A DNA stretch of 64,000 nt from Hormiphora californensis (Eukaryota > Animalia > Ctenophora). A program made the position numbers and the translations under genes. Position 1 is the stretch's first letter. The number at the start of each line of letters is the position of its first letter. Of this stretch, positions 8,950-58,269 are shown piece after piece. The stretch lies in assembly GCA_020137815.1 (NCBI GenBank), contig CM035353.1, positions 4,340,001-4,404,000 on the forward strand, given 5' to 3'. A model generated the notes under the pieces. The model was not told the DNA's origin. It did no database searches and saw only the letters and a program-made list of their open reading frames with translations.

Positions 8950-9170
8950 GGACACTGACAGTCCGGGAGGCCGGTAGTCCAGTGGTGCCGATGGGGGCAT
9001 TCCCGCAGCCCTAGGATGGAGTGATAGCATACGTTATACACGATATCACGACCCAGTAACGCTTCAAGCACACACAACGTCAGGGTCCATGCAGGCCATA
9101 ATGAAAGCGGCGATGTATCGGTATTTGGTGTGATCCATCTCAAATGTATGTGGTGGTTGGGTGTTTGCCT
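8950..9170 (-). pseudogene. Cys/His repeat-domain family fragment
   Basis: LCVLEALLGRDIVYNVCYHSILGLRECPHRHHWTTGLP matches 29030-29708. Confidence 0.75.
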
Positions 9171-11351: not shown

Positions 11352-11560
11352 CATCCCCAAGCAGGGCATAGATGATACATATGTATATACACCAAGTACA
11401 TTGTTCTGGCCGAGAGAGAAAGATGACCCACCTTCATGTTTAGTAGATGTGAATGAGTCCGAGATACCTATCACACTTGAGAACACTGATGAGCAGGCTG
11501 AGTATTTCTTCCTCGATGATATCCTCATAGGCACAGATTCGACAGATCAGCACAAACCGC
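11352..11560 (+). pseudogene. Gypsy pol fragments inserted in the tandem unit
   Basis: STLFWPREKDDPPSCLVD matches 49562-49786 and is joined to RT motif LDDILIGT (cf. about 50413). Confidence 0.8.
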
Positions 11561-11589
11561 CGCTCTCCACCAACCACAGAGACAGTGCT

Positions 11590-12340: not shown

Positions 12341-13084
12341 AAATAAATAGCCTGGATGTTGTGGTCCATGTAATCGTTCATAGCACTCTAATAACTTCAT
12401 GGCCACTTCTTGGTTGGTCTAAGCTTAGCCTCCTCTGCTGGCATTTCGCAATGTTTCTTTGCCTTCTGAGTTTGGTAACAGCAGTGCGTATGTCGTTTGG
12501 CAGTGCGAGATTGAGGCTTTCTTTCACTTCGGTCTTGGATTTGTCCAATGTGGCGGTATTGATCTCTCCATTCTTGACTTGATGGTGTAGTATTAGAGCC
12601 AAGTGTGATCACTTGGGATCGAGGGGTCGGATTCGTCGGATTAACATCCGGTTCCATCCGGCCCCCGAAATAAACGCCGTTGCCCAGGTCTCCTCCTCCA
12701 ACTCCTCCTCTTTCTCCTCCTCTAACCCCTCCTTAATCTCTCGGTAAATGCCCGGGAGTTGTCCGTGTGTAGCGTTGTGCTGGACGGTACCGGGCTGGAC
12801 TGCACCAGGCTGGAGTGCACTGAGTTGGAGTACACCGGGTTGGAAGAATGTGTATTCCCGGCCGTAGATCTATAGAATCACAGCTGGGTTGGAACAATGT
12901 TACCCCTGATGGTCTGTACAACCTCATGGTTCTCGCTTTATGTCAATTTTTAATAACAGGAACCACTTACGGAGACTGTCCGATATAAAATATGACCAAT
13001 ATATTAATTAAATATGACCAATATATTAATTAAAAGATGTCAGATAAGGTAATAAAAGATGTTAGTAAAGAAGTAAAAAGATCT

Positions 13085-13507
13085 AGTGTCGTTTCTGATG
13101 GATGGTCTGCCATGTTTGCAAAGAAGTTTAACCAATGAGATGCTAAGTAGCGCAAAAGAATTGCTACATCTGGCTGCAGCTTTTGTGCCAGATTAATGTT
13201 TTCATAGGGGTCTTGTACTACGAAACATTTTGAATTGCTAATAGTTTCCCTATTGCGTATATCAAAAGATTTTGTAAACAGTTGCCCATTAGCAATGTTT
13301 GTTAGGACCCACACGATGATGCTGGTGAAGGGTTTTGGGAATGCCCTCCTACGATACTTCACGTTTTCATAGCTTTTGGTATCTACTAGGCCAAAACAGC
13401 GCTCGTTGACGCAGGTTGCAGCAAATATTATGGCCCATTAGCGAAGCTGTCTCTAGCTCTCTGATTCACTACTAGCTTCCGACAGAGCAGGGTTCTCAGA
13501 TACTACA
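13085..13507 (-). pseudogene. LTR terminus fused to TENT-like C-terminal fragment
   Basis: Begins TGTAGTATCTGAGAACCCTG at 13507; ORF contains CFVVQDPYENINLAQKL (PAP-associated DP(F/Y)..N motif). Confidence 0.6.
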
Positions 13508-14608
13508 ATGTTGCTCCTGATGGTCTGTACAACCTCATGGTGCTCGCTAGTATTGTTCATTTTTTTAATAATAGGAACCACTTACGGAGACTGTCCGATA
13601 TAAAATATGACCAATATATTAATTAAAGATGACCAATATACTAATAAAAAAATGCCAGATAAAGTAATAAAAGATGTTAGTAAAGAAGTAAAAAGATGTC
13701 CAATAAAGTATAAATTATAAAGACAAGCTGTTGATAGATCTATATTGATTCAATTTATTAAACACAGGGAGGGAACACTGTCACCGGAATGTTGGGCCTG
13801 CAGTTACGTAGGTACAGTATTCACAGTAAATCGCAGTGTCCTTCGTCTACTGGCAGCCGGGACAGCCGGGGCAGTCCGGCAACCCAGTCATCCAATGGTG
13901 ACGTGGATACCGGCACTGCCGCATCCGACAAACTAGCAACTCGGGCTCAACTGAGAATGTTAACGCCCCCGGACCCAGCACCCTGAAACCGAGGGTGCTC
14001 ATTTAATGGGCACGACAGCACTTCGATAAGCCGGTGATGACATATCAATGGCGCCAGCTCATCGAAGAGAAACTGTAAATCACAACGACTTACAGTAACG
14101 GGGTTAATAGGCACCCCACACTGCCCCACTACCGAATCAAAACGAAGATTCCATGCAACCATTCGCTCATGGGGGCAGTCCAACTCCCAAACCGTCCAAA
14201 GCTCACCGACAAAATTTACAAGGGACATGGTGTTCTAAAAAAGTAAAAACGTGTTAGAAACAAATTAGAGAACATGTTGACTAAAAACGCTTAAAAAATA
14301 GCATATAGTAAAAATATACAGGGGCCTACAACGGTGTAATGTGCCGATATCTCCCGGGGTGTCCTCACATACAGCGCATTGAAGGTGTGCCAAGGGGAGA
14401 AGCCCATGACACTCCTCCATGGCGACCGGCCTGTTGATCGCCCAACTAAAAAGGGAGCAGGCGCAATAAACCACCGGCACCCCGTTTTTAGAAGGGATCA
14501 CGGACCACAAGGGGGTAGGGTGACCAGCCCCCTGACACTCTAACAAATCCCGATGGCGGTGGGAACAAATCAGGCCAGCATGCCCAACCAGTAGGGCCTC
14601 GACCATAC

Positions 14609-14835
14609 TGTTACAGGAGTGGTGTGCAACCTTGTAAATCCATTTCCGGGGCAGGGACAAAGTTCAAAACAAGTTGGCTCAGTGTGGCGAGAGCTAACAG
14701 TGCACCACTAACGTAATGGTTGGGGAAATGACAGAAGTGAAATAGGAACAAGATAAACTCGATAAAATCTCTCTTTCTCTCTCTCTATCAATCATCCGAT
14801 ATATCGATCATCCGATTCTTATAATATATATAACA
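14609..14835. mobile_element. Short or internally deleted solo LTR, TGTTA...TAACA, 4-bp TSD ATAC
   Basis: Absent from the other two tandem units; ATAC at 14605-14608 and 14836-14839. Confidence 0.75.
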
Positions 14836-15008
14836 ATACAAACAATATATATAACAATACAAAATGTAATGGCTGTAGCGTCGACAGGCCAGCCCAAACG
14901 TTCAACCACCAAGGTCAAAGTAGAGTCCCAGAGGACCTGCCGAATCATCTCTTGCCTGGCGTCCATTAGAGAATTGCTAAAAAAAAATTTAATTACCTAC
15001 TATTAGTG

Positions 15009-15045
<37 letters not shown>

Positions 15046-15088
15046 TTATCTTTTTTGTTTCCTTGCGACTATGTTTTCAATTCAATAA

Positions 15089-15752
15089 TTATTTGTCTAG
15101 GTTTTGGATTAGGTGGGATAGCCTACTCTGTGCGTTTTCTGGTGCTATTGTAGCAGTGCTTCTAGTTCTAGCTCGTAGTCCTGATGATGAAGGAGCTTCT
15201 ACTAAGTTGGAGATATTTGGGGTGCTAAATGTTCTCTGTTGTTCTTGAACTAGTTCATGTAAATCATCGTTTAGTTGTTCATACATGATGTTTTCAGTGA
15301 GCTGTGTTTGTCTTCCTGGGACTGGTGGTGCTCTTGTGGGCTTAGTGATTGGACTAGCGTTGAGTAAGGTGGCTGGTGTGCTAAATGTAGTGTTTTGGAT
15401 GACCTGTGGTCTCCTTTCAGATGGGGAGTCAAAAGTTAAATCTATATGTAGCTTAGTTGATTTGTTCACTAACTTAATCAGTGGAATGCGAGCAGTGGGA
15501 AGTGCTAATTTAATGAGGAATTTACCGTCTTTACTTTTGATGGTTCTACAGATTTCTTTTATCAGGTGTGGGATTTTGTCAGTTGGAGAGTGGACAATAG
15601 CGTCTAAGTCAGACCCTACAAGATTTAAATCACTTACAGTCGAACCAAAGAACGAAATGGTGACGTTAGGTAGTTTGGTCGTGACCAGGCGAATCTGGTT
15701 AGCTACTTTCTCCCATGTTTTTCGGTCAGTGAGTTGTTTGATCAGGGTTCTC
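15089..15752 (-). CDS. Intronless TENT (Trf4/Cid1-like) nucleotidyltransferase catalytic core plus low-complexity tail, 5'-truncated
   Basis: Open frame upstream of ORF 15089-15469 reads ISFFGSTVSDLNLVGSDLDAIV...LPTARIPLIKLVNKSTKLHIDLTFD: GS, DxD and the third Asp all present. Confidence 0.88.
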
Positions 15753-16599
15753 AGATACTACAGTGCACCCTTATCACAGATGCCTTTCCCGCCGGGTGGC
15801 TTGGTTGAACTATTATCTCGGTTACCGTTCCTTTATTGAACTCCATTCTTATTTTGCTCTCAGTTATCAGTTATCAGTTATTCTCCATATTCTAGTACAA
15901 TGAGGAAATCCGTTAAGCATGTACTTAGTACATTGTACTACCGTAACCACTAACCTTCCTCTATGTCTCCTTTCTCTTGCTCGCTATAATTATTTGTATC
16001 TCTTTTCTCTCTCATAATTAGTGAATATCTGTATGACAAATTCCTAAACACCTCTCTGATATAAAGCTATTGCCAATATCCCCTACCCCAGACTGTAATA
16101 GAGGGTCGCGTCCACTCTGCATACTCTCTCTTGCCACTCGAAGCGTTCTCTCTCTCAGAGAGTCTCTGTAAACCAGGGGTCTAAAAGCACAAAATGGGCT
16201 TAAATTACGCGAGTTTGATTGATGGGAAGCTCCAAATGTTAACATGTTTGCCCTATCGTTATTGATAGGTTGCTTATAACGTAGTACGTAAGCAACCTAT
16301 CAATAACGTCACGTACACTAGAATTGATTGAACTAAGGTAAACACAAAGCTTGAATAGACGAATCTAAATGGTAGTAAAATCACAATATGTCTGAACAAC
16401 ATGGTATAATACTCAGTATTCTCAGTACTACAAATACTACTAACACTACGTTCAAGATATGTAACAAATATTAACAAATTCTAATTTTTAGGGTAGGTGG
16501 AATATGCTCAGTGAGAAAGACAGTGAGAAAGACAGCGTGAGCATTGCACGCTGTCTTTCTACCTCTCTCTCACTATTGTTGCTCATGCTAACAACCTCC

Positions 16600-18075
16600 T
16601 CCTGTAGTTCCAATATTCCAACGCTCTGGTCTGAGCGTTCTCCCAATACCTTCGCTCAGCTCTTATCAGATCGCTTTGTTCTTCCTCCCATGTCCTTGTA
16701 ATCACCGCGGTATACATTCCATTCTAACTAATACAATTCATGTTAGTGTATTTTTTTCACACTCGTGTCTGGGAGCTCCGAACTCTGAGAAACAATTCCT
16801 ATATATTTCAGGCGGCCCTCCTTCCACTCCTTCCACTCTTGAACAGCTGGAGGGTGTCTCGGATATTGGAGTATGCTGGACATGTAGTGCTTCTGTCGGC
16901 TCTTTTTATGTTCAGATAATCTCTCCACTTATTGCCCATCTGATCAAAATATTTTCAATGATATAGTGTGCTTATTCCATCACCCCAATTTAAATAGATT
17001 TTAAAATAAGTCATACCCATAGATCGTCTAATCTTAGTTGCAGTAACTTACCTTACAATCATACTCGTGTTTGGGAGCTCCGCACTCCGGGAAGCAACTC
17101 CGGTATATCGCAGTTATGTAGTGTAAATCCGGACCCCGAACTCGAACTAACGTACCACCAACTCGTGGGTGCCCCAGATGGGGGCAACTCCGGTATATCG
17201 CAGGGGGTTCCTCATCATTATCTCTCATTTTCTCGTCCTAGGAATACGTTAGCCGTTATTTTAACTAGAAATCTATGTCTATAAGTTCATTTAGATGTAT
17301 TTTATGTTAATAATTCAATTAATTTCATGTCTGTGCTCTTTTTGCTTTATTTTCACTACATATATTACCTCTATCTGGCCTACTGTTACTGTGCTCCTCT
17401 TCTTCTTGCTCCTAGCTTCCGATCGACTGTCGCATTCAGCCGAGCGATTGTTGGTGGTAGTAAAACTCTGCCTACTGGCGGTACATCTCGGCCAGTTCTA
17501 GATGTCGCTGGGAATCAGCTGCCAGCGAGGTCTCCCGTTGTGTTCCCTCTTCCAGTTCAGCGTTGGCCATCAGGAGTCCAACGCTGAGCCCGTCTGTATC
17601 CCCGTTCTGCCGATCGACAGTCGCGTTCAGCCGAGCTATATAGTGGCTTTCAGCCGATCGACTTCTCGCTCCTTCTTACGCCTGTAGTTCTTCCAGTAAT
17701 TTCCGCTGGCCGGTGTTGGCTCCCTACACGCAAGTGAACCTTAATGCACTCTTAAAATCAAAACACACAAAACAAGTCTCTAGACGAAATCCACATGCTT
17801 GATCCACATGCCTCGGGTCCAGTCCTTATACTGCAGGTCTCTTCCATCTGATCAAAATATTTTTAATGTTATAGTGTGCTTATTCCATCACCCCAATTTA
17901 AATAAATTTTAAAATAAGTCACCCATAGATCGTCTAATCTTAGTCAGTAACTTACATCCTGCCTCATGTTTGGGTGCTTCGCATTCCGGGTAACAGTTCC
18001 TAAATACTTCAGGAGGAACATGATCGGTGCAGGCCCGTTCAATCGTCACACAATCTCTCATTTCCTCGTCCTAGG
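16600..18075 (-). pseudogene. Multi-exon gene family fragments with PPxI(Y/F)RNCxPECxAPKHE motif (16600-17240, 17770-18075)
   Basis: Repeated motif, shared gtaagttactg donor and ttttgatcag acceptor; third copy on the plus strand at 30645-31050. Confidence 0.55.
17420..17720 (-). pseudogene. bZIP-like accessory gene copy (frameshifted)
   Basis: GNYWKNYRRKKEREVDRLKA...GLSVGLLMANAELEE...HLELAEMYRQ. Confidence 0.85.
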
Positions 18076-18139
18076 AATAAGAAAGCCGTTATTTTAACTA
18101 GAAATCTACTATGTCTAGTTCATCTAGATGTGTCTTACT

Positions 18140-18700
18140 TCACATAATTTCACGTCTGTGCTCTTTTTGCTTTATTTTCACTATATTACCTCTAGTCGGC
18201 CCACTGTAACTACTATCATCCTCTTCCTTCGACTCTTGGCCTCTGGATTCCTTATCTTTACTATACCATATACCAGGATAATAGTAGGTTTCATCAAAAT
18301 TACCATAACCTGCTATTCTCAAGAAACTGCTGTTATTTGTTTTCAGTAACTGCTCTGGTTTGATTTCTTCAATCAGGACTACTGATCCATATATCCATAG
18401 GTGGTAAATTTTGTCCATCACTCTGCACCACCAGTAAAAGACTCTTTCAAACGAGTACTTTTTGTCACACGGCCATGCCCACTCATATTCGCCAACTATT
18501 TCCTCGTCAATGATGATCGGGTTCCCTGACAAATACCTTTTCATGTCCACTCTCATTCTGCACTTCTTCTGGACTTTTCGTGAACATAATTCAACCTCAA
18601 CAAGTCCATTATCCTTGGGTCCAATCCTTGTTTCTTCCTTTCGGCCCTCAACCTTTTCCTCTCCTCTTCCCGTAAACTTAGTTGTTCTTCGTTATTCATT
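18140..18700 (-). pseudogene. Homolog of ORF0 (44687-45400)
   Basis: KYSFERVFYWWCRVMDKIYH..GSVVL..LRIAGYGNF aligns with KYCLTYVIWWWKELIRDFH..GGIGL..LRIKCYYKF. Confidence 0.65.
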
Positions 18701-19147
18701 GGCTAAGGTTATATATTGTTAGGTTCATGTTTTGTATGGTCATGTAGGCATTTATTTTACTAAAATGTAACTTCTAGGTAGCAATAAAAGCTAACTAATC
18801 AACTGTCTAGGTTTGAATTGCAATGTACAATTTTTTCTGCGGCCTAGACTGTACTCTTTTTGTAACCTTGACTTCCTCTCTTCTTACTTCTCCAGCTATC
18901 CCTTCTTTCCTTGGTTCTTTCTCTACCTCTTCCTCTAGCTCTTCTAGCTGTTCACAAGGACTACCGGAAGTCGGCTATGAGCTCCATCTCCAGTAAGATT
19001 CTATTTTCCACTAGATTATCTCCAATGTCGCCTTTTCACAGTTATCTTGTCTACTGAGTCAGGCATATTATTATCGCAATCAAACTAATAATTAATAAAA
19101 TATACACTGAGCTGTGTCTCTTTTATAGTGTCTCTGTCAACTTCAAG

Positions 19148-19290
19148 CTACCTAGTACGGGTGTTGAGGCGGGATGGTCTTCTTCTTCTTATGACACTCT
19201 CAAGGGAGGGGTACGGAGACATTCGTGGGTCAAGGGGCCGGACTTTTTTATCACCAGGCGGTTCCACCCTGCGCCGGCTATGTAGCAAGT
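19148..19290 (-). pseudogene. C-terminal fragment of acidic accessory gene
   Basis: KKVRPLDPRMSPYPSLESVIRRRRP; shares 3' UTR with 47340-47440. Confidence 0.85.
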
Positions 19291-19326
19291 CCATAGCAAG
19301 CACTTGATTGTTTTTTATTTCATTGA

Positions 19327-19466
19327 CATAGCAACTCTGTCTCCACATTCATTCATTGTCTTCCTGTTGGGACCCATACAGAAAGTTGGATGTTAGCTAA
19401 CATCCAACTTTCTGTATGGGTCCCAACAGGAAGACAATGAATGAATGTGGAGACAGAGTTGCTATG
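19327..19466. repeat. Perfect 140-bp spacerless palindrome
   Basis: Centre ttag|ctaa at 19396/19397; arms are reverse complements. Confidence 0.95.
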
Positions 19467-19499
19467 AATAGGGGTTGTTGAATTTTAGGACACAATTTT

Positions 19500-20720
19500 C
19501 TAAATCTGGCTGAGTTACCTACCACGCAGCTCTACGCTTTATTGCGCATCCTAGACTAAGGGACTACTCGATAGTTCATTAAAATAATCCGTATATTCTC
19601 AGATATCTTTAAATCAAATCGCTCCTCCAACTTTGAGTCCTGTAAAGATCTTTATCTTCAAAAGGATCTATGATCTGGGGCGATCCTATTTCGATTTTTT
19701 CTCCCAAATTTTTCCTCAAGTCTATACTCTATTGTGCTATTGTCTATGCCTTCCATACTATCGCCCATAAACTCCAGGATCGTGGACCTTCGTTCCTGCC
19801 GCATCACTCCTTTTTTCCAATATGGGCCTTCTTTTTATTTCGCTCGCTGTTCGTGCTACAAATTTTTCCCACGGGACAACTTCAGGCATTTCCCTTCAAT
19901 ATGCAGGCCTCTTTTACCATGTTCCTTTCCTCCAAGACCCGTATGACGATCGTGATTGCATAATTCGACACCAGGGATGTCTGTAAAACAGGTGTTCCTT
20001 CAAACAGTGTCTTGATCGACTGGACTGTTATCTGGAATATTCTCTCTTGCGTGAACCTGTAAAATATTAGTGTTTTAAAATATGTACCATTTATTCCCAC
20101 TTAATTTTAGTTGTTACTACTCTAAATTTTAATGTCTCACCATTTGATAATTAGGTTTGAATTCCACAGAACTCTTTCTTTTTTGTCTTCTGCTGAGGCG
20201 CAGCAGAAATCCACCTTTATTCCTAATTCATGCCTGAGTGTCAGAACTTCCAGTTTGTTCACCTGATGGAAGGTGGTTTATACGCGATATTGTTTGATTA
20301 AATTCAACATACCAAATAAGATAATTACTGTAACTTATAACAGTATCCCCTAAATTTAACCCTTAACATACCTTTTTTACAAATACAAACTTTAAGCCTC
20401 TATTTTTCTCTATGTTTCTTATGTGTTTCATTGGCGCTCTTATCGGCCCATACTAATACGTCTATATCGCATTTTTGGTCGAACCAAAGACCCGGTATTT
20501 TATCTTCCTTCTTTCTAGCATCTCGTTAACCTCCTTCATCGCCTGATTGATTTTGTATAATTGTACCTGAAGTGAGGTTGATTTGAGTTTCGATGGCCTG
20601 GGAAGTTCAGATTGACTTTGCTGTTTGCTACTATCATTGTTATTATTATGTACCTTTTCGTCCTTCCCTATATCAACCCCCATACGGTGCTCGAGGTATG
20701 ATACCATTACTACAAAGTGG
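19500..20720 (-). pseudogene. Intron-containing TENT/TUTase-like gene, copy 1 (frameshifted)
   Basis: YRVFGSTK / CDIDVLVWAD; GT-AG introns 20263-20371 and 20057-20140; LRHELGIKVDF..VLWNSNLIIKW|FTQERIF..VSNYAITIV; GSPQIIDPFEDKDLYRTQ. Confidence 0.85.
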
Positions 20721-21374
20721 AGCTTGTTAATTATTATTATTAGTATACTAAACCAACAACGAAGTAATCCAACTATACTCGTTTGATATATGAGACATAA
20801 TATAAGCAACACAAGTAATATTAAAATCTTATATCTCTGAATATCTAGTATCATCACATCATAATTGTTCAGTTTGACACAGTTCTCTCGTGTCAAATAC
20901 CTGGCAAGTGCTCGAGATAGTAGGACACAATATTGTGTCTCAACTTCGTTACTGCCGCCTGTTGAGTCCTGTACAAATTCTTATCTTCGTAGGGGCCTTG
21001 TATTATTGGGGTGCCCCTTTTTATCTTTCCCCACAAGGGGCCCTTAGATCGACAACACTGTTGTCTAGCATCTCGCCCAGGTTTTCCAGGGCCATTAAAT
21101 AATTAATAATAATTAATAATAATTATAATAATTAATAATAATAATTAATAATTAATAGTAATACTGTTGATCCGTCGGTTCCCCGTTTTATCTCTCCTCT
21201 CGTTGTCCTTGTGGCTATATGCTGCTCTTTTACGACCTAGAATGAGGTGTGATATCGTTATTACCTTAACTTATCTAATTTGTCAATGATTACAATATAA
21301 TTATTTCCTTATTAGTTTTTTGTTGTTATTTACCTGTCCGATATACTAATAAAATATGACCAATATATTAATCC

Positions 21375-21525
21375 GGGCCTCTCCTATCATGCTGGTTATT
21401 GCTGTAAGATTTGGGTAAAATTCCTGCCCCATAAGCTCAAAGTTGTCTTCCCCGTCTATTGTTATGCAGCTGCTTCCTCTATGGTGACAGGAGCCCTGTT
21501 TCCAAACTGCACCACCGCCATGTTA
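21375..21525 (-). pseudogene. Fragment homologous to accessory ORF 58270-58622
   Basis: VQFGNRAPVTIEE..EFYPNLTAIT vs IQLGNNAPITIEE..KIYPDFTEIT. Confidence 0.7.
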
Positions 21526-21605
21526 AGATTGTGTATAAGATAGGGAAGGCTCCAGACTACAATATATGCAACAACAAAACTTAGTATGAGAGCTAATAAT
21601 AATGT

Positions 21606-21740
21606 ACGCGGATAATTCCCTCGATGTCTATCTGTCCGCCGCTTAGTCTGATACCTGGTATTTTTGTCACCCCGCTCAGCTGAATCTCATATCCCCCGGT
21701 GCGTATCGTCAGGTTCATGGCTGCAAGGGGTCGGATTATT
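21606..21740 (-). pseudogene. N-terminal fragment of acidic accessory gene with its splice acceptor
   Basis: taatccgaccccttgcag|ccATG then MNLTIRTGGYEIQLSGVTKIPGIRLSGGQIDIEGI. Confidence 0.85.
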
Positions 21741-22439
21741 GTCTCATCTCTCTCCATGTCCCTCAGATTGTCATCCCCTTTGGTTCTCCGAGCATTGTTC
21801 TCTGAGCCATATACACTTCGTATTAACCTCTCCGCGAGAGTGCTCTCTGTGATCTGTGCAATAGTCTATCGTCCAGTACTACTCTTCCGGGTGTTCCTCT
21901 CCTCACAGAGCACTTTTCCATCTGATAAGTTCGGAATTTAGGATGACCTTCTCCTTGTTATCCCGTTTTGAGGCGACACTAATATCCACCTAAATTCTTT
22001 TTTGTGGAAAAGAGGTTTAAAATTATACTGATAACAATCAAATTATATATAAGCACACTGTGGTAATAAATTAAACATACAATAAATTAATATCTATACT
22101 ACTTGAATAGTATGGTGTAATTGTCTTCCCTCGGTAACCCCGGAGGCTGACCTTAATTCCAGAGTCGTGCCTCAAAACCATCAGCTCTTGCTTGTCGAGC
22201 TGCCTCTCGAACTTGAAGGCTCCTCTCCTCAATGGCCCCACGTTACTCCTTATCCTGCACATTGAGGGAAATCATACGACTCTTACTGCAGTTAGCGACA
22301 ATCGAGAAAACAGACAGCATAACTCTTTTAAGCGACAGTGCTGTGTAATTTCTCAAAACTCTTATTCTTAGTGAGCAACAGGGAAAAGAATTGGGGAGAG
22401 AAAGTGAGAGACAGGGTGCCCCCTTGAGAGAGATTATCT

Positions 22440-22546
22440 CGCGCGGCGCATTGGCACGTGCGGTTTGGGCGCTGGCAGGCTTTTACATGTTGCAACATGT
22501 AAAAGCCTGCCAGCGCCCAAACCGCACGTGCCAGAGCGCCGCGCGT
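22440..22546. repeat. GC-rich palindrome of about 105 bp within an insertion in the TENT gene
   Basis: Centre acatgttg|caacatgt; near-perfect arms. Confidence 0.9.
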
Positions 22547-23340
22547 TACTATCTTGCTCTCTCTCACTCACTAGCTGCATTAACTGATTGGCTGTTATCG
22601 ATCACATGTACGCAGTCACAGGCTATCCCTGTGCACTAGGACTTATCACGTGACCTTTCACGTGACCAGATGCTGTGATCCCCGGTCAGTTAAGAGTTTT
22701 AAGAGTTTATACGTCGCTAAGTAGCGGCGCTTACCACACAAGAGAATGGAATCACCATTCTCTTACTCTTGATATCTCTTACAAGAAAATAAGAGTTATT
22801 TTGGAAAACAGTCAGCACCTGTCGCTTACTCCAGTAAGCGATTGCGAAATCAATCAGCACCTGCTAACTTCAGTAAGAGTCGTATGATATCCCTCATTAG
22901 CCCCTGTATGTCCCCTTCGGCCCATACCAAAATATCCAGATCGGAGCTGTTGATTACCGTATTGCTCCTTAACGACCCGAATATTTGATGCTCTATCCCT
23001 AGCCCTGACAACATTTTTTCCGCATCCCTTTTTACTTCCCCTATTTTGAATCTCTTTAGGTTTTCCTCCCTATTAGTCTCGACCCGCATCTTGTAATCTA
23101 AGTATGTACATACTACAAAAATTCAAGATGTCTCCTCGAGCTTGGCGTCCCCTCTCAACAAACTTTTTACGTTCATGAATGAAAAATGATCAATATATTT
23201 ATGAAAATTGACCAATTATATATTAATAAAAGATGTCAGATAAAGTAATAAAAGATGTGGTATTGCAGGGGTTGGAACAATGTTGCCTCTGATGGTCTGC
23301 ACAACAATAGGAACCACTTACGGAGACTGTCCGATATAAA

Positions 23341-24049
23341 TGTAGTGTAATTTGTCGTGGGTAATGGCTGGTCGTCTAGTGGTAGGCCCAAGGTGCGTAC
23401 CTGGTCGTGACGGTTGGGTGCTGAAGTATAACAGCGACGTGGGAAGGTGTCGTTGAGAAGGTGTACACGTGCTTTACGTGTATAACAGGGACAGGAGATG
23501 AGGTACACGATTCAGTCGTGTGTAGAAGAGATCGATGAGAGGACGTTGAGTATCGACCCGTGGTGGGTATTGTTGAAGGATTCGTAGAAGTGATACAAGT
23601 TAGATTTGTGGTCGTTCAAAGAAGTAACTTGTTACAAAACAAGGCGTATATCGTATAATATGGAAGTGAAGTTAAATTGTAAACTTAGAAGTGAAGATGG
23701 GGTTTGTTGTAGTGATTAATATCTTTTCGCCTTCCTATCGTCATGCCTATTGGCTTTAGCCAATTAGGAATGCCGATGATCAAGTGCGGTTGCTCTGAAC
23801 AACTCTGACTGACTGTGGGTCGTTCTGAGTAGCTCTGTTTTATTCTGACTTATTCTGGCTTGCTCTGAGTTACTTCGAACTGTACTGACGTTATATAATA
23901 GCTGTTCTGTCTCTATACTCTCTAGTTCTCTGTGGTTACGTAGCAACAGAGAGAGAGGGAGAGAGAGCAATAACGATTAACAGTTAGAGGTATAGAGAAC
24001 TACTGATATATATCTCTCTGGGCTCTCACTGTCAGCCCCAGATAGTACA
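23341..24049 (-). mobile_element. Solo LTR, 709 bp, TGTACT...ACTACA, 4-bp TSD TAAA
   Basis: Interrupts the multicopy motif ccgatataaaatatgacc; TAAA at 23337-23340 and 24050-24053; TATA near 23895. Confidence 0.88.
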
Positions 24050-24169
24050 TAAAATATGACCAATATATTAATAAAATATGACCAATATACTAATAAAATA
24101 TGACCAATATATTAATTAAAGATGACCAATATATTAATTAAAGATGACCAATACATCAATAATTTAATT

Positions 24170-24408
24170 AAAGATAAACGTCCGGACGGTAAAAAATCCG
24201 CCGCGAATGTCTTCGCTCATTAAACAGAGAGTCGTAGCGAGACCCGATACCATACTGCTCAGGGACGTTTAGATCCGTGGACCAATTCCGCCTCTTCCAA
24301 ACCCATTTTGTTTTCTAGATTTTTCTTGTGTTTTCAATTGTCTTTTATTATTTTTTTAAAACTTCTTACAGCGGTAGCATCTCTACTAACTCTCCCCCCC
24401 CTTTTTTC
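24170..24408 (-). mobile_element. Polypurine tract (24392-24408) and start of a 3' LTR beginning AGTTAG
   Basis: gaaaaaaggggggggag then agttagtag, downstream of the env-like genes. Confidence 0.6.
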
Positions 24409-24486
24409 ACAGTCTATAACAGTTTATTGCATATTGCTGGGTGGGGCAGAATTTGTATTTATATTCTATATTCCTAATATACGTGT

Positions 24487-24987
24487 TCAAATCTTTCTCG
24501 CTACAGGGGAATATTGTTTCTGGTTCAATCTCTTTATTACTTTCTGCTGTCTCTTGCCTTCTGCTGATCTCTTCAGCTCGTGGGCTAGTTGTGCCGTGGA
24601 GTCAACGACCAAGTGATAGTGGAAATCCTCGTAAATGTCGCTGTCCACGGTTTCCTCGTTTATCTCCCCTCTGGCGATTTGGAATCCTAGTTTTAACGGG
24701 TAGTCATAGCACTGTGTTGTCGCTTTGTGTGCTACTATGTTTTTCCTCTCCAGCTGTCTGGTTGAAAGGTCCTTACATATCTGTAAGGTCTCTAGCTTTT
24801 CGTCCGTGGTAAGGCTTCCTCTTACCACATCGTTGACCCCTTTGGTCCAGATTTTCGTTATTTCTCTAGCCGCTATTGCTGGATTGTCTCCGAACGTGTT
24901 GACCTGTTCCTCAATCTTTAAACCATCCTTTGCAGATCTCTGCGATTCTCTGGTCTGTACTCGCTCCTCTTTCCTCTGTCTCTTCAA
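24487..24987 (-). CDS. Hypothetical ORF or polyprotein tail between env-like genes and PPT
   Basis: 166-codon open frame on the same strand as the env-like genes; no motif. Confidence 0.45.
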   Translation of the reverse strand: MKRQRKEERVQTRESQRSAKDGLKIEEQVNTFGDNPAIAAREITKIWTKGVNDVVRGSLTTDEKLETLQICKDLSTRQLERKNIVAHKATTQCYDYPLKLGFQIARGEINEETVDSDIYEDFHYHLVVDSTAQLAHELKRSAEGKRQQKVIKRLNQKQYSPVARKI

Positions 24988-25131
24988 GTACTATTCCAAT
25001 GTATGATGCCGAGTTGGTTCATCTTTTTGTGAGGGCCACCAGTACAAATGCAGTCACATAGTCGGCACTCTTCATATCTGCGGGAGTTGGTGTCACCAAA
25101 TGTACATCAATCGTTTTCGTCGTTGTAATTG

Positions 25132-25337
25132 TTCCAGTGTTTAACGTCTCTGACGACATATAGTCCAGTGTTTAACGTCTCTGACGACATATAGTCCAGT
25201 GTTTAACGTCTCTGACGACATATAGTCCAGTCTTTAACGTCTCTGACGACATTTAGTCCAGTGTTTAACGTCTCTGACGACATATAGTCCAGTGTTTAAC
25301 GTCTCTGACGACATATAGTCCAGTGTTTAACGTCTTT
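25132..25337. repeat. 31-bp minisatellite, about 6.5 copies
   Basis: tccagtgtttaacgtctctgacgacatatag, head-to-tail, no spacers. Confidence 0.95.
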
Positions 25338-25349
25338 GGAGACGGTTTC

Positions 25350-27125
25350 TCGTTGTTTGTGGGACGTGGGTTTTTCTCGGTATATTGTCCCTGCAAACAT
25401 ATCGTCTTTTACTAATTCTCTTATGTGTTCTAACGTGAGGACTTCAGGAAGTACCCCGGCCCCCATGGTTAGTTCTGATTTAAGTACGCCAGCCAAAATT
25501 GTTTTAATTTGATGTTTCCATTCCATGTGACGTGAAATGGAGCTACTAATTCTACCTAGGAACGTTTGACTGACTGGTTTTATGAAGGAGTCATACTTTA
25601 TCACAATTCATTCTCATTTTGATCTTTGTCTACTGATGATTGGTGCCTCCTCGTGGGGCACCATGAAACATGTGTATAGACCTTAAAAACTGCTGTTGTT
25701 TTTAATTTGTATAAACTGCTCGCCGGCTAACCCCGTGCTAGAGCTCTCTGTTGATCTCGGACCAAGGGACAGGATATCTATCTTGTCATCACTCCACTAA
25801 TCTCGCTATAATGCAATGCTCCTTCAATTTATTTGTTGTAGAGCTCTCTTGTGGATCTGAGGACACGTACGACATCTGGTTTTGAGGAACAATGATCAAA
25901 ATGGAATACAGATTACACACTCCAAGAAAGGGAAATGGTTGACGTACTTTGAAATTGGGGAATCTAGAGGTCCAAGATACGAAGATGTGACGTGAAATGG
26001 AGCTACTAATTCTACCTAGGAACGTTTGACTGACTGGTTTTATGAAGGAGTCATACTTTATCACAATTCATTCTCATTTTGATCTTTGTCTACTGATGAT
26101 TGGTGCCTCCTCGTGGGGCACCATGAAACATGTGTATAGACCTTAAAAACTGCTGTTGTTTTTAATTTGTATGATGTTTCCATTTCAAAATTTGTCTTTC
26201 TTTAACTATTTGGTAGGCGACGGTATCTACATTACATTTGATACTATCAATTTCTTTTTCCAATACTTTATAAATTTCGACCACTTCCTTATTGAATTTT
26301 ACTTGTTCAGTAAGGAATGCGGTGTATTTTCTAGTCTGGGCGGCTTCGTACATTGTTGCCCCCAGACCTACAAGAGCTGGGATCCCTACTGCTGCTAACA
26401 CGACTCCAATTAATCGTTTTTTCTAGCTCCCGGTTGTGCGATTGCCGTGTCATTGTCTACTGTTTATGTGATGTGTTCCAAAGTTTATCAATTTCATTTT
26501 TTGTTTCTTCAGTAAAAAATTTTCCTAGTGGTGTTTGTGGTATTTCTAAATATCCCTTACACATGCGTGGAAGTTCAGATCTAAGTGCGTGTAGGTCGAC
26601 AGTTACGCTTTTCGCGAACCCTTCGACTTGTTTCCACACATGGTGTAGTTCGGTGTCGCCAAAAAGGGTTTCCTTTTTCAAGCTTCTAACTTCACATTTT
26701 CCATCATTGGATGGTTCTACGAGAGCCAATGCACAGGCCTGTTCAAAACATTTTTCATGCATCTTTTAACATTTTCAGCCATTGTTGGCTTTAGTAAGTG
26801 GAAGTTCGCTACATATCTCGGGTATTGGACTGATGCGTCTACTAACCAGGCATAGTCTGGTCTGCAATAACTATAAGGTCTATGTCATTGTGATCGGGTT
26901 GTTCGGTGCATTTAAAACTAGTTGGGTCAGGTATCGGTGCGGACAAAAAGACTGATGCAAATATGCTTTCTGCCCCTGCGGCAATATATCCTTGAGAACT
27001 ACCCCAATGTCCTTGAGAACGATTGGGTCTAGTTGCAGTTTGAACTGTGCTTGCTGGATCTCCGCCTCGCGTGCCACTCTCAATTTCATGCATAATAGAA
27101 AAATAATCAGCGGAATCAATTTCAT
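25350..27125 (-). pseudogene. Class I fusion (F-like) envelope gene, frameshifted and rearranged
   Basis: Signal peptide MKLIPLIIFLLC, Cys-rich ectodomain, basic site RELEKR then hydrophobic LIGVVLAAVGIPALVGLGA and heptad-like FLTEQVKFNKEVVEIYKVLEKEIDSIK; duplication of about 180 bp at 25525/25986. Confidence 0.7.
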
Positions 27126-28811
27126 CGTTGGAATCTTCCCGCGGGACGTCTGAAATGATTTGCTGTTTACTATGACGGTAGTGATACTTTTTCTGAATTT
27201 CGTTTTATTTATTGAGATATTCACATTAGGTAAAATTTTCCAAAATTTACCAAAATTTAATTGTTTGACTGCCCAAATCATGCCACACGCTGCGCCAGCT
27301 CGTGTCAGCCATAGTATTACTCCATCTATAGTATGTGATACCATTCTAGACTTTTAAATCCCGGTATTATTAGTTCAGGAGTGTCTAAATTTTGAGCCTG
27401 GTCTTTTTCCATATCGCTTATTCTATTTTCCATGTACTCTAGGGCAGCTTTTGATGGGTCCGTGTGTGATATGTCCTTATTATCATATATAAACTCATCG
27501 GGGAAATGAAATAAATCGTCAAATGTATGGGTTTTGAATATGGGTATTTCTAGAGCATTATTCGTGTTTATAATGTGTGGTGTGCTTCCAGGTTGATAGT
27601 TGTATGTTTTACCGTGTAACTCTATGAACCTACTCATTGGTGCAGAACAATTCGTTCTTGGTGATTTGTTATTGATTATGTTTGTCTGTGGGTCTATGAA
27701 TCCGCTTCTGAAATTTTCTGCCTGGTTTACTTTGTATATTATCGGTACGTCATAGAAACATTCATCTGTTTGTCTGAATTCTACTGTGTCAATTGGTTTA
27801 CATGGTGTTACTTGAATGAGTTCGCCAGTAATGTGGTCACTTTGTGCTACTATGTATGGGTTACTTAACATGTTTCGTGCGTATGCGGTGGGGTTTTTAA
27901 GTGCAAGTGTTTTGGTGACGTTAATGGTTAACTGTATTGCTTCACATAAGTTTGAATATTTAGTCGTCTTCTCAGTCATTACATCAGATAAGTAGTTAAG
28001 TTTTGTTAGTAATTCCTCTCTAACTGCTTCAATGGTTGTTGTCTCTGCACTACCTTTTATTAATTTTGGTGAGTTTTCTTTTCAGTGATTCTGATTTTGA
28101 AGCCGTTGGCGAAATAATATTTGTTCATTATGGGTTTTTCGTGTAGGTCAGCGCTGAAACCTATTTTGGCGATCATGATGTGGTTTCCTAAAATGATTGC
28201 TTGGTAGTTGCCAACTAATATATGTGTTTTTTCAACATTTAGTTCTGGTTGCTATATGATTGTTTCATTGTGGTTTGTTAGACAGTAACCTTTATTATAG
28301 GTTTGTGAACATTTAGTTACGTCTCCTAAATTTGATATCATATCAGTGCCGTGTGTTTTTGTTACGTATCCGTCCCTAATTATACATTCTATGACCGTAT
28401 TTGTTTTAGTTTTAAGCCATTTAGATTCGCACTTTGGGTTGACATGACCCGTATTTGTATTTCTATTGCCTGCTTTGTCTTCACATGTTGAATGAGTGAT
28501 GTGATCGCGATATTTATTTTCTGGCCAGTAAACTTTTCTATTTGATGTAGTTGTCTCTTTAGACCCAAAAAATTGCTGGATACTTTGCACGTTTTATCTG
28601 TAACTTTGATTGATTTGGCTTTTACTCTGTACTCTTTGATGTTTCGTTTCCAAAGTGTTACGTTGTAAATTGTCGGGTTGTCATTGTCACATTTAAAAGA
28701 CTGCGGGACTTTAAATAGTTGCTTAGCAGTCCTGCCGTCACATATCATGGCAGTGCTATTGACACTGTCAATGATGATAGCAAATAGAACAGTTGCTACC
28801 AAGTTTCTCAT
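27126..28811 (-). pseudogene. Class III-like (chuvirus G / herpes gB-related) envelope glycoprotein, frameshifted
   Basis: Signal peptide, MICD..C, NFFG loop, NPTAYARNML..TPCKPI..FRQTDECFYDVP..GFIDPQTNII..C, TM-like GVILWLTRAGAACGMIWAV; acceptor ttttcag abuts the ATG. Confidence 0.75.
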
Positions 28812-29029
28812 CTGAAAAACATAGGTTGGTTGTGTGAGTCTGTTCTTTTCGTCAGTCGAGTGATCAAGTCGTCTGAGTTAAAGTCACACGTCAACTTCCC
28901 TATGTGGTCGACCTTCTTCAGATGTGCCTTGGATGCTATGGATGCAATGATGTTATGATGCTACGATGCTATGTTATTTCGTTTTTTTTCTATGTGTTAT
29001 CTAAACTTTTTCCAATTACACTAGCTACT

Positions 29030-29708
29030 ATGTCTTATCTAAGAATCGATATGACCTTCCGGACCATTGAAGAATGGTATAGGTTATTCTGGATAATAAC
29101 TCGTCACACCGGATCACCGGTTGATTGGGGTCTATTAAACCCATGCCTCATTTCCGCACTACTTGGGGACGAAATCATCGGCTTGGTCTGTTATCATTCA
29201 ATTATCCGATTGTTGGAGTTCCCCCATGTGGGGCACCCCCAAGTTGGCGGTACTATATACTGCATATGTGATCTCGCGGGGTTCGTCTTTATATGTCACG
29301 ATCGACATGAGGTTTACAAATGTGGAACAATGGTACCGGATTTTCCGGTTGATTTGTTTTCATGTGGGATACCCCGTCAATTGGGGTGCGTTAAACCCCT
29401 GTCTGGTGGTCGCGTTAATCGGGCCAGAGTTACAGGGCGCTGTGTGTTATCACGCCCTGATCCGCTTACTCGAGTGTCCCCATGTGGGGCACCCTCGGGT
29501 AGGCGGTACTCTGTACTGTATGTGCGACCTGGCGGGATTTGTAGTGGTGTATGGTCCCGATGCGCTAGGATTCCGGGTCGATCCCGAAGTCCTAGTGTGT
29601 CGGGCCAGGCAGTGCCGGTACCCCCGGCACCATTGGGAGACTGGACTGCCCCGGCTGTCCTGGCTGCCAATAGTTAAATTTTCTTTTCTTTTAATACGTA
29701 TGGCCTGA
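29030..29708 (+). CDS. Cys/His tandem-domain protein (one frameshift between domains)
   Basis: Two repeats of about 85 aa: IDM.F...E.WYR.F..I..H.G.PV.WG.LNPCL..AL.G...VCYH..IRLLE.PHVGHP.VGGT.YC.CDLAGFV. Confidence 0.75.
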
Positions 29709-30166
29709 TTTAATTGTACGTGATAATTTTCTTTCCCCCTTTTATTTCTAAAACTCTTTCTTTCAGGGGCAGCATTGTACCACCCCTCCTCCTAAGATCG
29801 GAGACGGTAAGTTAATCCTTTCATTGAGTTCCCTTTTGGATAAAAATTTTTCCAAAATACTGGTTAGTGCCTGTATTAGATATGTATTGCAACTATGGCC
29901 AAAAGTTATCACGTGCCTCGTTTTTTCAGAGATTTGTACCCGGTGTGTTTCCTTGGTGAAATTCAGGGGGACACTGGATGTGGGGGCTGCCAGATTAGTT
30001 TGGAACAGTGCCAGCATTGTGCCACGGATCTGTGCAATGCACAACCGAGTTTCCTGTTAGATGCCCAGGGAGAAAAAGAAAAAGGGGACTCAGAGAGAGC
30101 AAAACAACTAAAGGAGGAACAGGAGACAAGAGAGAGAGAGAGAGACTGCACGGAAAATGATAGTGT

Positions 30167-30167
<1 letters not shown>

Positions 30168-30210
<43 letters not shown>
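30168..30210. repeat. (GA)n microsatellite
   Basis: Direct inspection. Confidence 0.95.
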
Positions 30211-30212
<2 letters not shown>

Positions 30213-30644
30213 GGTTACGGTGATATGGGTTCTGGTCGGGACACTATTCCTGACTATATGTCTTTTTGTTGTTATAATAAAATATAAAAAATGTATTTCC
30301 GGGTGAGGGAGTATCAATATGTAATAGTATATGAATCTAAAAGAAGTTAATAAATAAGAAAATATTAGTTTAATAATTTAATAATCAAAAGTAATAAACA
30401 TTACTACCTAATACTAACACATTTATCACTCAGGCAGGTGATTAAGATAAGGAACGCGGAAGTTAGGAGCAGGAGAAAGAGGAGCACCGTAACGATAGGA
30501 CAAATAAAGGTAATATATAGTGTAAATTAAAGCTAAAAAGAGCACAGACGTGAACTTGGTTGATCAATTATTGGTATAAAATAGATCTAGATGAACTAGA
30601 TATAGTAAGATTTCTAGTCAAAATAAAGTAACGGCTAATTTATT

Positions 30645-31880: not shown

Positions 31881-31982
31881 ATGCAACGTCAACACTCTCT
31901 CTTGTGCTGCAGGCCAGTTGACGTCAGGGAGGAAGATGAATCATCGTAACCAGCACCACTGTATCTCGTATATCGGGATATA

Positions 31983-32738
31983 ACGGGTGACAACTAAAAA
32001 TTGTCCCTAATTTAAAACGGCTGTATAAATTTTCCCTTTTGAGATACAGCTTCAGGTCAGTGATAGAACGATTTTTCAGACAATTTTGAATCGGAATAAC
32101 ATACCGGCAAAGTCTAAAAAGTTCATTTTCATTGCGATATCGCATCATTTCCTCTTGTCCCTCCAAAGCATGTAGTACGGAGATTTGAAATTTCTATGTT
32201 ATCAGAAACGACCTTCCCGATGAGATAGAATTCTCAAAATTGGAAGTCTGGTTGTTGATACCATAACCAACATAACTGCCAAGTTTAAAAATTTCAGCTC
32301 ATTAGGAAGTTGGTTTTCCACGTCATTAATGTTTCAAGAGATTGTCGAAATGGCGATTTCTCAAATTACCTGTAAACTACGCTTTATTACAGAAGATTCT
32401 GATCAGGAAATTGAGATTTACGAAGTTTGAAACAAAGTTAATTTCGTTCAAAATTGTCTGAAAAATCATTATATCACTATCCCGAAGCTGCATCTCAAAC
32501 AGAACAGGCGCTAGAGGTACTAGAAGATTGTGTAGATTTCACGTACTTCATGCTTTGGTGGGGCAAGAGGAAATGATGCGATATCGCAATGAAAATGAAC
32601 TTTTTAGTCTTCGCCGTTATGTTACTCCGATTTAAAATTGTCTGAAAAATCGTTCTATCACTGGCCCGAAGCTGTATCTCAAAAGGGAAAATTTCTACAG
32701 CCGTTTTAAACTAGGGACAATTTTTAGTTGTCACCCGT
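31983..32738. mobile_element. Tc1/mariner-type MITE, TA TSD
   Basis: TIR of about 190 bp starting acgggtgacaactaaaaattgt; second copy inverted at 57516-58267. Confidence 0.9.
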
Positions 32739-33755
32739 TATGAAAATAGAAAGGGGGGGTTAGAAGCCAGAAGGTGGTTAAGAGTATATAATCCCGATAA
32801 CAATGACACCATGCCAAATTACCAGAGACTTTATAGTCACCAGAGACCTTCATTTCACCAGAATGTTTACATATATTTACCTAACAAGTTTGTTATATCA
32901 TGGTTTACTGCACCTGCAAAGACCTTCATTTCACCAGAATGTTTACATATATTTACCTAACAAGTTTGATATATCATGGTTTACTGCGCCTGATAGATTG
33001 GTCACTTCATGAGGGCATGGTGAGGAATACTTGGTTAAGAAGTTACCCCTTGCCAGCGCGCGCGAAGGTCGCCCGGGTTACAGATCCGGTTTGATTCACT
33101 TAAAAAATTAATAGCTCCTCAATGAAAATGCACCAAAGCGGATCTGTATAAACCGCTCTTTAGAGGGGTTATTTCGTAACCAAGAGGAATACGTACCTTT
33201 CTATCTATCTACGGAGTGCCTGGGCTTGCCAACGGCAAGCCCACAGGGGACTATCGCAAAGCGATATCGCCGGCACTAGGAGAATAGCCCGGCCGGCCCC
33301 CTCCCCCCACCGTCAGGAACTGTCCAAATTAGGTATAGGTTCACATTATAAGTGGCGACGGGTTCGGGAGAGTAAACTCGTACCTTTGGGAATGTAGTGA
33401 CTATAAGACCGGAATGAAATTACCAGTGTAAAGGGGACCATTGGGGGAAGTCGTGCCTGAACCTCAGGTTCAGCCACGACTATTTTCCCCAATAGAGGAA
33501 ACAGGAACAACCGACAACAAAACATGATGGAAATTAACAATTTGTGTTAAACATGAGAATTAAACAGAGCCAGCTAATTTGCTCGTTAGTTTGAATAAGA
33601 CTCCAAATCAGGTAATTAAACACTGCACCATTTGCACCATTTGCCATTGCTCTTAAACTTTTGTTACCAACCTAATTTTAATTCAAACATGTAATTAACA
33701 TAAAACCTGAACCAACTATTAATTATTGAACTTTTTCCTCAGGAACCTTGGTTAA

Positions 33756-35145
33756 GGGTACGCTAACCAAAAATTTTTTTCGAGTGCAGGGAAATCTCTC
33801 ACCGTAGGGTTGTAGGCCATGCCAAGGAGACCTCAAATATGCAATTTGAGCTCTCAAGTCGAATTCATATTTTTGCTACAGCTGCTTGAAAAATGAACTG
33901 TAAATACGTTTTTGGCATCTCAAAAAAATTTTTTTAAAGATAGGAGCATGAAAATTTAGGGATTTGAAGAGGACATGAAGGTGAATAACCACAAAATTTT
34001 TTTTTGCAATCCGAGCTGATTTCCGGTCCTGAGATGGATTTCTTTTTTTCCACTTTAACGCCCTATTTGGCAAAGTTCCGAAAACATGTGAAAGCTGTAA
34101 ATTGGTGAAAAGTTGCGTCTAACGATTATCTAAGTGGCCATAAATTTTGGGCGTGTCCTTATTTGAGATAAGCTGTACAGAGTTTCTTTTGTGAAAGCCG
34201 TCATTTCAGAAATAAATAAATTCCCTGTATCTCAAAAACGGCTGATCGTAGAGACCTGAGACTATGCTTAAACGATTCAGAAGGTCCGATTTTGGGGGGG
34301 TCTTCTGAGAGACATTTTGCTCCTACTTCAACCGTTTTTGCTGTAATTGCGAAAAACAAATTCTATGAAAAGGGCAAAAGCTAAACTCCAATATCCTGTA
34401 ATTAGGGAATTTTAGCTAAGAAAGGACCGAAACTATGGAAAAATGTGTAACAAGCTAATTCCTTCACTATTTGGTCCATATGGGTCCCTATAATCACCAA
34501 AAACAAAATCACAAAAAATCCACGATGGCGAAGATGGGTTTTTGTTTTTCGCAATTACAGCAAAAACGGTTGAAGTAGGAGCAAAATGTCTCTCAGAAGA
34601 CCCCCCCAAAATCGGACCTTCTGAATCGTTTAAGCATAGTCTCAGGTCTCTACGATCAGCCGTTTTTGAGATACAGGGAATTTATTTATTTCTGAAATGA
34701 CGGCTTTCACAAAAGAAACTCTGTACAGCTTATCTCAAATAAGGACACGCCCAAAATTTATGGCCACTTAGATAATCGTTAGACGCAACTTTTCACCAAT
34801 TTACAGCTTTCACATGTTTTCGGAACTTTGCCAAATAGGGCGTTAAAGTGGAAAAAAAGAAATCCATCTCAGGACCGGAAATCAGCTCGGATTGCAAAAA
34901 AAAATTTTGTGGTTATTCACTTTCATGTCCTCTTCAAATCCCCAAATTTTCATGCTCCTATCTTTAAAAAAATTTTTTTGAGATGCCAAAAACGTATTTA
35001 CAGTTCATTTTTCAAGCAGCTGTAGCAAAAATATGAATTCGACTTGAGAGCTCAAATTGCATATTTGAGGTCTCCTTGGCATGGCCTACAACCCTACGGT
35101 GAGAGATTTCCCTGCACTCGAAAAAAATTTTTGGTTAGCGTACCC
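33756..35145. mobile_element. Foldback DNA transposon, TTAA TSD, GGGTAC termini (Kolobok-like)
   Basis: Inverted arms of about 600 bp, spacer of about 180 bp, TTAA at 33752-33755 and 35146-35149. Confidence 0.9.
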
Positions 35146-35149
35146 TTAA

Positions 35150-35589
35150 CTACGACAGATTGGTAGAATGGAAGGAGAAAACTGGCAAGAGGTATCGCGG
35201 TGCCACTGCGATCACGATTGTTGCAGGTAGAGACAAGCAACCGGAGACTTTCGATCAAAGAGGTCGATAAGTTTAAGACTGTCTCGGCAGGGGCCCGCCA
35301 GGCAGCAAAGACGTTGATATATGAGTCAACGGCCCCGATCAGAGACGCCTTGATCGGCAACGCACCGTTAACCATGGTTCTACGTGGAATCGACCGCTCC
35401 ATCGGTACTTTTTACCGTTATGGGAGTGATCTCTCCTTCCCTTTCAAACACATGGAAGAAAATCGGGAGGTACCAGGCCCATCCCAACCAGAAAACCACT
35501 GGAGGAAAGCCTCTTCCCTCAACAAGCCCAGGAGCTCGAGCGCCAGCCGAGGGGCCAGGAGAGGCAATGGGAAAAGAGGGAGGTATTGA
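35150..35589 (+). pseudogene. Unknown coding exon interrupted by the foldback
   Basis: 129-aa ORF; acceptor ttttcctcag at about 33742 joins it once the foldback is removed. Confidence 0.3.
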
Positions 35590-58267: not shown

Positions 58268-58269
58268 TA

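Follow-up and report, generated by a model that had tools for sequence, protein, structure and literature searches.

A 64,000-nucleotide (nt) window of Hormiphora californensis contig CM035353.1 (positions 4,340,001 to 4,404,000; coordinates below are window positions) carries on its minus strand a decayed copy of what is likely a long terminal repeat (LTR) retroelement with two envelope-like genes in tandem. By its sequence, gene 1 is a class III fusion glycoprotein (Monjiviricetes G / gB-like). Gene 2 is only suggestively related to the class I fusion (F) proteins, and the pairing of the two genes is a trait of the element family rather than a local chimera. The reading we favor, with somewhat less than even confidence, is that the copy combines a class III envelope gene with a separately made, anchorless and probably F-derived accessory gene left by an envelope swap. 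A preliminary description of the locus had proposed a tandem of two unrelated fusogens. The class III gene and its linkage to gene 2 stood, whereas gene 2 as a working class I fusogen was not established. The features of the cassette are as follows.

28812-28837, minus strand: splice-acceptor-like tract ..TTTTTCAG directly before the gene 1 ATG; its use is presumed
27130-28811, minus strand: gene 1, chuvirus G / gB-like envelope with signal peptide, ectodomain, transmembrane (TM) segment at ~27323 and tail
26880-27353, minus strand: open reading frame (ORF) joining the gene 1 TM tail to the gene 2 start with no stop, in the window copy only
24960-27125, minus strand: gene 2, with a predicted signal peptide at 27125, ~237 codons, then KKR, a hydrophobic segment and a heptad helix
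26174-26422, minus strand: the one part of gene 2 that is F-like, with basic site, fusion-peptide-like segment and a heptad-like helix
25510-26172, no strand assigned: secondary insertion of 662 nt that interrupts gene 2; its termini are identical 188-nt direct repeats, and a 16-nt duplication flanks it
25133-25335, no strand assigned: 6.5 units of a 31-nt tandem repeat within the 3' part of gene 2
24490-24990, minus strand: ORF3, without a TM segment
24390-24408, minus strand: polypurine-tract-like run, one of 40 purine runs of at least 15 nt in the window and weak alone
23800-24392, minus strand: LTR-like segment with motifs in LTR order; the far end is not fixed

The class III envelope gene

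Gene 1 is broken in the window copy, being spread over four frame segments with breaks near 28555-28580, 28070 and 27345 and one internal stop near 28254. Across these segments run a signal peptide, an ectodomain of ~480 amino acids (aa) with conserved cysteines, and a C-terminal TM segment. ORF 27329-28081 matched Pfam family PF24664 (Monjiviricetes_fusion) with an E value of 2.4e-17 and 62.6 bits, the cut-off being 27, and gave a weak Glycoprotein_B match as well. The NPTAYAR..PC..GFIDP motifs recognized earlier lie in this same ORF. The "NFFG" loop reported with them must be dropped, as NFFG occurs in no single frame; in the frame aligned with the homologs the residues are QQFFG. The signal-peptide ORF begins at 28811, immediately after TTTTTCAG, the acceptor-like tract reported at the first ATG. 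TTTCAG occurs four times on the minus strand between 24400 and 29700.

A homolog search over proteins of 441-2,000 aa matched two of 1,273 candidates, P0001 (522 aa, 47% identity) and P0002 (554 aa, 45%), whose clusters hold one further member each. The intact homologs P0001, P0002 and P0005 are colinear with the whole of gene 1 at 32-47% identity. P0001 and P0005 also pass the PF24664 cut-off, and P0002 gave no match to that family. The top Atlas neighbors of P0002 were rhabdovirus G, Monjiviricetes, GP64 and gB clusters at 0.92-0.96, with a low recognition value. A PDB sequence search with gene 1 returned no matches. Since the AlphaFold prediction of P0002 from a four-sequence alignment failed (pLDDT 29.7; the model was not used), the class III assignment rests on sequence, to which both the family match and the colinear intact homologs contribute.

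Other copies were found in contigs of sequencing runs. Seven of the nine listed runs (three studies, none on record as RNA) carry the stretch or part of it, the best-matching run possibly being the window's own sample, and contigs of four runs were aligned to window positions 22800-30600. Contigs of two samples gave close copies as well as diverged copies of two kinds, which makes this a multicopy family. Relative to the diverged copies, 18 of the 22 gene 1 substitutions fall at third codon positions (P 4e-6). This count and that given below for gene 2 use the best-supported rows only; four rows beside breaks were excluded, as were rows that close copies also have. Intact relatives would express gene 1 from a spliced mRNA, with its acceptor at the ATG, and use it as the working fusogen.

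The second gene and its likeness to F proteins

The start of gene 2 at 27125, with its predicted signal peptide, and the sequence KKRLIGVVLAAVGIPALVGLG at 26422-26360 (minus strand), followed by a 3.5-periodic stretch (P 0.008), bear out what had been described as a second signal peptide, a basic site with fusion peptide and a heptad region. The full R-X-K/R-R site is not readable because a frame break lies directly upstream. The hydrophobic segment is rich in Gly and Ala with a central Pro, and its hydropathy (KD19 2.37) is at the level of a TM segment. Several frame breaks and the 662-nt insertion interrupt the gene, whose 3' end is uncertain (25300-24960). Ten of its 15 substitutions fall at third positions (P 0.009 with the chosen frames; 0.07 if the best class is taken for each segment), and gene 2 is likely to be coding.

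F proteins retrieved by a motif search, 36 of the paramyxovirus type and 41 of the baculovirus type, served to build profiles. A focused profile of 100 positions, covering the cleavage site, peptide and heptad A of the paramyxovirus F proteins, gave ORF 26165-26422 a score of 10.4 bits, the region having been chosen after the result with the full profile. This score ranked first among the 1,228 ORFs of the window (903 scored; the next reached 3.4), was reached by none of 2,000 shuffles, and exceeds those of all 41 baculovirus F segments (best 7.2). The alignment begins exactly at the cleavage site of the profile and spans 83 positions. A basic cleavage site, a hydrophobic peptide and heptad A, as required of an F protein, are recognizable in gene 2, whereas the Cys-rich domains, heptad B and a TM anchor 370-430 aa past the peptide were not found. 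In the 77 reference F proteins the TM segment lies 373-434 residues past the peptide, and the median number of intervening cysteines is 9-10. Downstream of the hydrophobic segment of gene 2 no minus frame encodes a TM anchor (one weak peak lies inside the insertion), and neither a post-heptad profile nor a Cys-domain profile gave a significant score on the gene. Judged by these features, gene 2 of the window copy does not qualify as an F protein, though it resembles the N-terminal half of an F protein. Of the F-like gene described earlier, the basic site, the hydrophobic segment and the heptad are present in the window copy, whereas the cysteine-bearing C-terminal half and the anchor of an F protein are missing. 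The affinity to class I is only suggestive.

The space available to gene 2 is bounded by ORF3. The ORF3 homolog P0008, from a eukaryote protein set, is 61% identical, starts with its own Met and aligns to 24927-24514 only. ORF3 is therefore likely a separate gene beginning at ~24960, and ~200 codons are left for gene 2 between the peptide and ORF3 when the insertion and the extra tandem units are set aside, about half of an F1. No Pfam family matched ORF3. A RelA/SpoT-like assignment (Atlas lead 0.85, low recognition) was not accepted. As had been proposed, this ORF (24490-24990) follows the second gene and is itself followed by a purine run at 24390-24408. The ORF3 region is also deeper than its neighbors in run X7, which suggests a module common to other elements.

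The 662-nt insertion in gene 2 had gone unmentioned in the preliminary description. Its empty-site joint was found in three of four runs and its contig depth is ~50-200 times that of the cassette (X3, X5, X6). It is likely a young non-autonomous element.

Several results count against our reading. On the full F profile the ORF at 26165-26422 aligned at the cleavage site with a score of only 0.5 bits (E 9.6), although that profile is insensitive, most true baculovirus F proteins scoring under 6 bits. On the focused profile one of 402 hydrophobic-segment decoys outscored gene 2 (10.5 vs 10.4), and one anchor-plus-stalk-like decoy, at 10.1 bits, came within 0.3 of it. An F2 N-terminal motif was not significant in gene 2, its score being reached by 109 of 3,000 and 157 of 3,000 nulls. 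The ~237 codons from start to peptide exceed the paramyxovirus median of 108 and the baculovirus F range of 131-173 (median 153). Gene 2 matched no Pfam family, its 3' half was not seen in the diverged copies, and its N-terminal half had no homologs among 1,160 candidates, a weak blank as the query was partly out of frame. As for the element, no second LTR copy lies within the window and no remains of pol were found between 29.7 and 41.3 kb. The one representative match to the N-terminal half, obtained with a query partly out of frame, was a bacterial repeat protein and was rejected as spurious, and a PDB search with an X read-through of the gene 2 middle gave two unrelated matches at E ~1.

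In a competing reading gene 2 is not F-derived at all. The element would then have one fusogen and several accessory ORFs, with gene 2 encoding a membrane protein of accessory function: a type I protein with a ~235-residue ectodomain and a coiled-coil tail, or else an attachment-type protein with an anchor and a helical stalk. The absence of any family or homolog match, the TM-level hydropathy of the hydrophobic segment, the near equality of anchor-plus-stalk decoys (10.1 vs 10.4), the missing F-type C-terminal half, the overlong N-terminal part and the richness of the region in other accessory ORFs all favor such a protein. In the part of Rodriguez 2017 (PMC5408684) that bears on the point, TM, cleavage-site and coiled-coil features alone are held to be insufficient to define an env gene. 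The alignment of gene 2, however, starts exactly at the cleavage site and extends over 83 positions, and the Gly/Ala-rich segment with its central Pro likewise speaks against such a protein. Given an upstream signal peptide, moreover, an anchor here would have the basic residues on its lumenal side, contrary to the positive-inside rule for membrane anchors. We consider a non-F gene 2 less likely than our reading, though a serious competitor.

Another possibility is that in intact members both genes, each on its own, encode a complete fusogen unrelated to the other, and that only the subfamily of the window has lost the C-terminal half of gene 2. Such an LTR-retroelement family would have complete class III and class I fusogens in tandem, each with its own acceptor, giving the particle two entry routes. 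Consistent with this are the linkage kept in copies ~20% diverged (below), the third-position bias in both genes, and an alternative 3' end in an X7 contig (organism B), which departs from the window sequence at 24961 and continues for 418 unlike letters. Against it, no TM or cysteine-rich stretch lies downstream in any frame, the ~200 codons from peptide to ORF3 fall well short of the 373-434 residues of the 77 reference F proteins, and among 15 of the 31 joint rows no joint points to a large missing piece. We regard both a complete gene 2 in intact members and the two-fusogen family that would follow from it as improbable.

The reading of gene 2 as a reduced, F-derived accessory gene implies that it would be translated from its own ATG to give a secreted or peripheral protein. 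That product would still have its cleavage site, the hydrophobic peptide and the first of the heptads, and would lack the C-terminal half needed for pulling membranes together. Such a gene would most likely have arisen by envelope replacement, a class III gene being captured beside an older F-type env that was then kept in reduced form. The parallel would be GP64 beside the remnant F of group I baculoviruses. In baculoviruses Ac23 keeps its anchor, and the GP64 and F genes lie apart.

Linkage and junction of the two genes

In run X5, which comes from a second sample, a 2,796-nt contig aligns to gene 1 at 27405-27609 (46 differences in 205 nt) and, on the same strand, to gene 2 at 26626-27057 (69 differences in ~432 nt). 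The gap between the two matches is 349 letters in the contig vs 347 in the window. Because order and spacing are the same in a contig only ~80% identical, the pairing of gene 1 and gene 2 is a family-level trait. A 1,645-nt X1 contig covers the whole of 26780-27480 with four differences, and a 3,030-nt X6 contig contains gene 1 (123 differences over 663 nt) together with a joint to 25457, the intervening part not being known.

In the window copy ORF 26880-27353 (Met 27344) runs from the TM tail of gene 1 into the signal-peptide-like start at 27125 without a stop, as first described. This phase is kept in none of the three contigs that span the junction. The near-identical X1 and X3 contigs, from one sample, carry in the tail a length difference from the window that shifts the frame, not being divisible by three; by the translation of the window, the resulting frame stops ~80 nt before the gene 2 ATG. 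The diverged spanning contig is also out of phase, its spacing, calculated from where the alignments end, being subject to edge error. Close X5 contigs break off in the tail at foreign letters and were not counted for phase. The C-termini of the intact homologs lie 54-56 residues past the TM Trp in four of four, with the gene 2 Met at 62. All four (522-562 aa) thus stop 6-8 codons ahead of the position of the gene 2 ATG. The run-through is most plausibly a product of decay in the window copy. A second TTTCAG, 24 nt upstream of the gene 2 ATG and one of the four noted above, hints, if weakly, at a spliced mRNA separate from that of gene 1.

The suggestion that the two genes form one polyprotein, in which the gene 2 signal peptide would act as an internal signal, is therefore largely refuted. 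It draws on the stop-free passage of the window copy, and we think it very improbable given the frame shift and stop in X1/X3, the out-of-phase spacing of the diverged contig and the homologs that end at 522-562 aa. That neither of the two matches among the 1,273 candidates of 441-2,000 aa is a fused protein is weak evidence in the same direction. A chance junction of two unrelated insertions could be imagined in a repeat-dense window full of nested fragments and repeats resembling miniature inverted-repeat transposable elements (MITEs), but is scarcely credible when the same order and spacing recur in contigs of two samples, including copies ~80% identical (unless the contigs are misassembled). 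The chimeric joint near 27130-27200 that unlinked genes in other copies would have indicated fails on the same evidence.

The element, its setting and related systems

The polypurine tract and LTR ending attributed to the element hold at one end, where the purine run adjoins LTR-like motifs, but not as a pair, no second LTR being present in the window. The motifs comprise five 22-nt CCAAT-containing repeats (24049-24162), a TATA-like sequence at 23898, an initiator-like TCAGT at 23888 and AATAAA at 23844. The minus strand carries all 14 occurrences of the 22-nt repeat containing ATATTGGTC within 8924-24132, a distribution that suggests several related LTR-like ends of like orientation. The nearest gag-protease-reverse transcriptase (gag-PR-RT) fragment is on the same strand (41339-44376), is cut, and cannot be linked to the cassette. 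Of the traits expected of a Ty3/gypsy errantivirus, the multicopy family is present and an upstream gag-pol in the same element is absent from the window copy, which may be 5'-truncated. With no pol and no second LTR linked to the cassette within the window, the assignment as an LTR retroelement is put no higher than likely.

The window is repeat-dense and eukaryotic in look, with LTR-element fragments, long inverted repeats and microsatellites. Besides the cassette it contains the following.

41339-44376, minus strand: gag-PR-RT fragment (Pfam)
48973-53598: decayed pol
62773-63999: RNase H-integrase fragment
28877-29705, plus strand: Cys/His-rich ORFs with repeated domains, antisense and just upstream of gene 1

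Within 41339-45421 (minus strand) a gag with four zinc knuckles, a protease and a cut RT are preceded by a 244-aa ORF without a known family. The Cys/His-rich ORFs at 28877-29705 (plus strand) matched no Pfam family and have paralogs in the window at ~8.9-14.6 kb, 17.1 kb and 55.5 kb, including tandem 1.84-kb units at 9253-14608. Nucleotidyltransferase-like ORFs at 15092-15757 and 22853-23122 (both minus strand; PF22600 E 1e-10, PF01909 weak) lie among element fragments and may be accessory genes belonging to related elements. Inverted repeats that are long and near-perfect (MITE- or foldback-like) occupy 33751-35150, 3835-5179, 31974-32740 and 57514-58276. Rfam over 22-32 kb and ARAGORN gave no matches, and metagenome and viral contigs searched with a window ORF or alignment A1 gave no confirmed relatives.

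The published systems compared here are cited from portions of the respective papers. Ty3/gypsy errantiviruses (Chary & Hayashi, eLife, PMC13524379) resemble the present element in being invertebrate-type LTR elements with an envelope gene before the polypurine tract. Both the gB/chuvirus type of gene 1 and F-type env occur among them, one type per element, and mixed clades suggest recombination. In the portions of their 1,512-element table consulted, no element with both env types was found. The present cassette differs in having two envelope-like genes and a third ORF in tandem and no linked gag-pol. Mosquito BEL/Pao elements (Dezordi 2020, PMC7642597) likewise carry a Monjiviricetes-type class III glycoprotein inside a retroelement, whereas the portion cited describes a single glycoprotein rather than tandem genes. 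Bdelloid TelKA/Vesta LTR elements (PMC5408684) share with it a paramyxovirus-like F env, short env remnants and captured non-env accessory ORFs. Unlike it, they have one ORF3 type per clade, with no class III partner in the sections cited of this account of F-type and remnant env in rotifer elements. The closest likeness in gene content is that of the group I alphabaculoviruses, which keep a remnant F beside GP64, and of DisaGV (GP64 plus F/Ac23), where, in the portion of PMC4741009 cited, a class III fusogen accompanies an older non-fusing F-type gene. Those are large DNA viruses, whereas here the genes are adjacent, in what is likely a retroelement, and the F-like gene is anchorless. The literature searched, with subscription papers outside its coverage, yielded no retroelement with both env classes.

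The occurrence of F-type and gB-type env in sister clades implies that envelopes have been swapped, and intermediates were not found in that literature. Were gene 2 not an F derivative, the family would be an ordinary gB-type element with unusual accessory ORFs; with a complete gene 2 in its intact members, it would be a retroelement with two fusogens. If our reading is correct, a class III gene held beside an F-derived gene across ~20% divergence would be an intermediate of an env swap, paralleling the replacement of F by GP64 in baculoviruses, and the direction and mechanism of env exchange would become testable.

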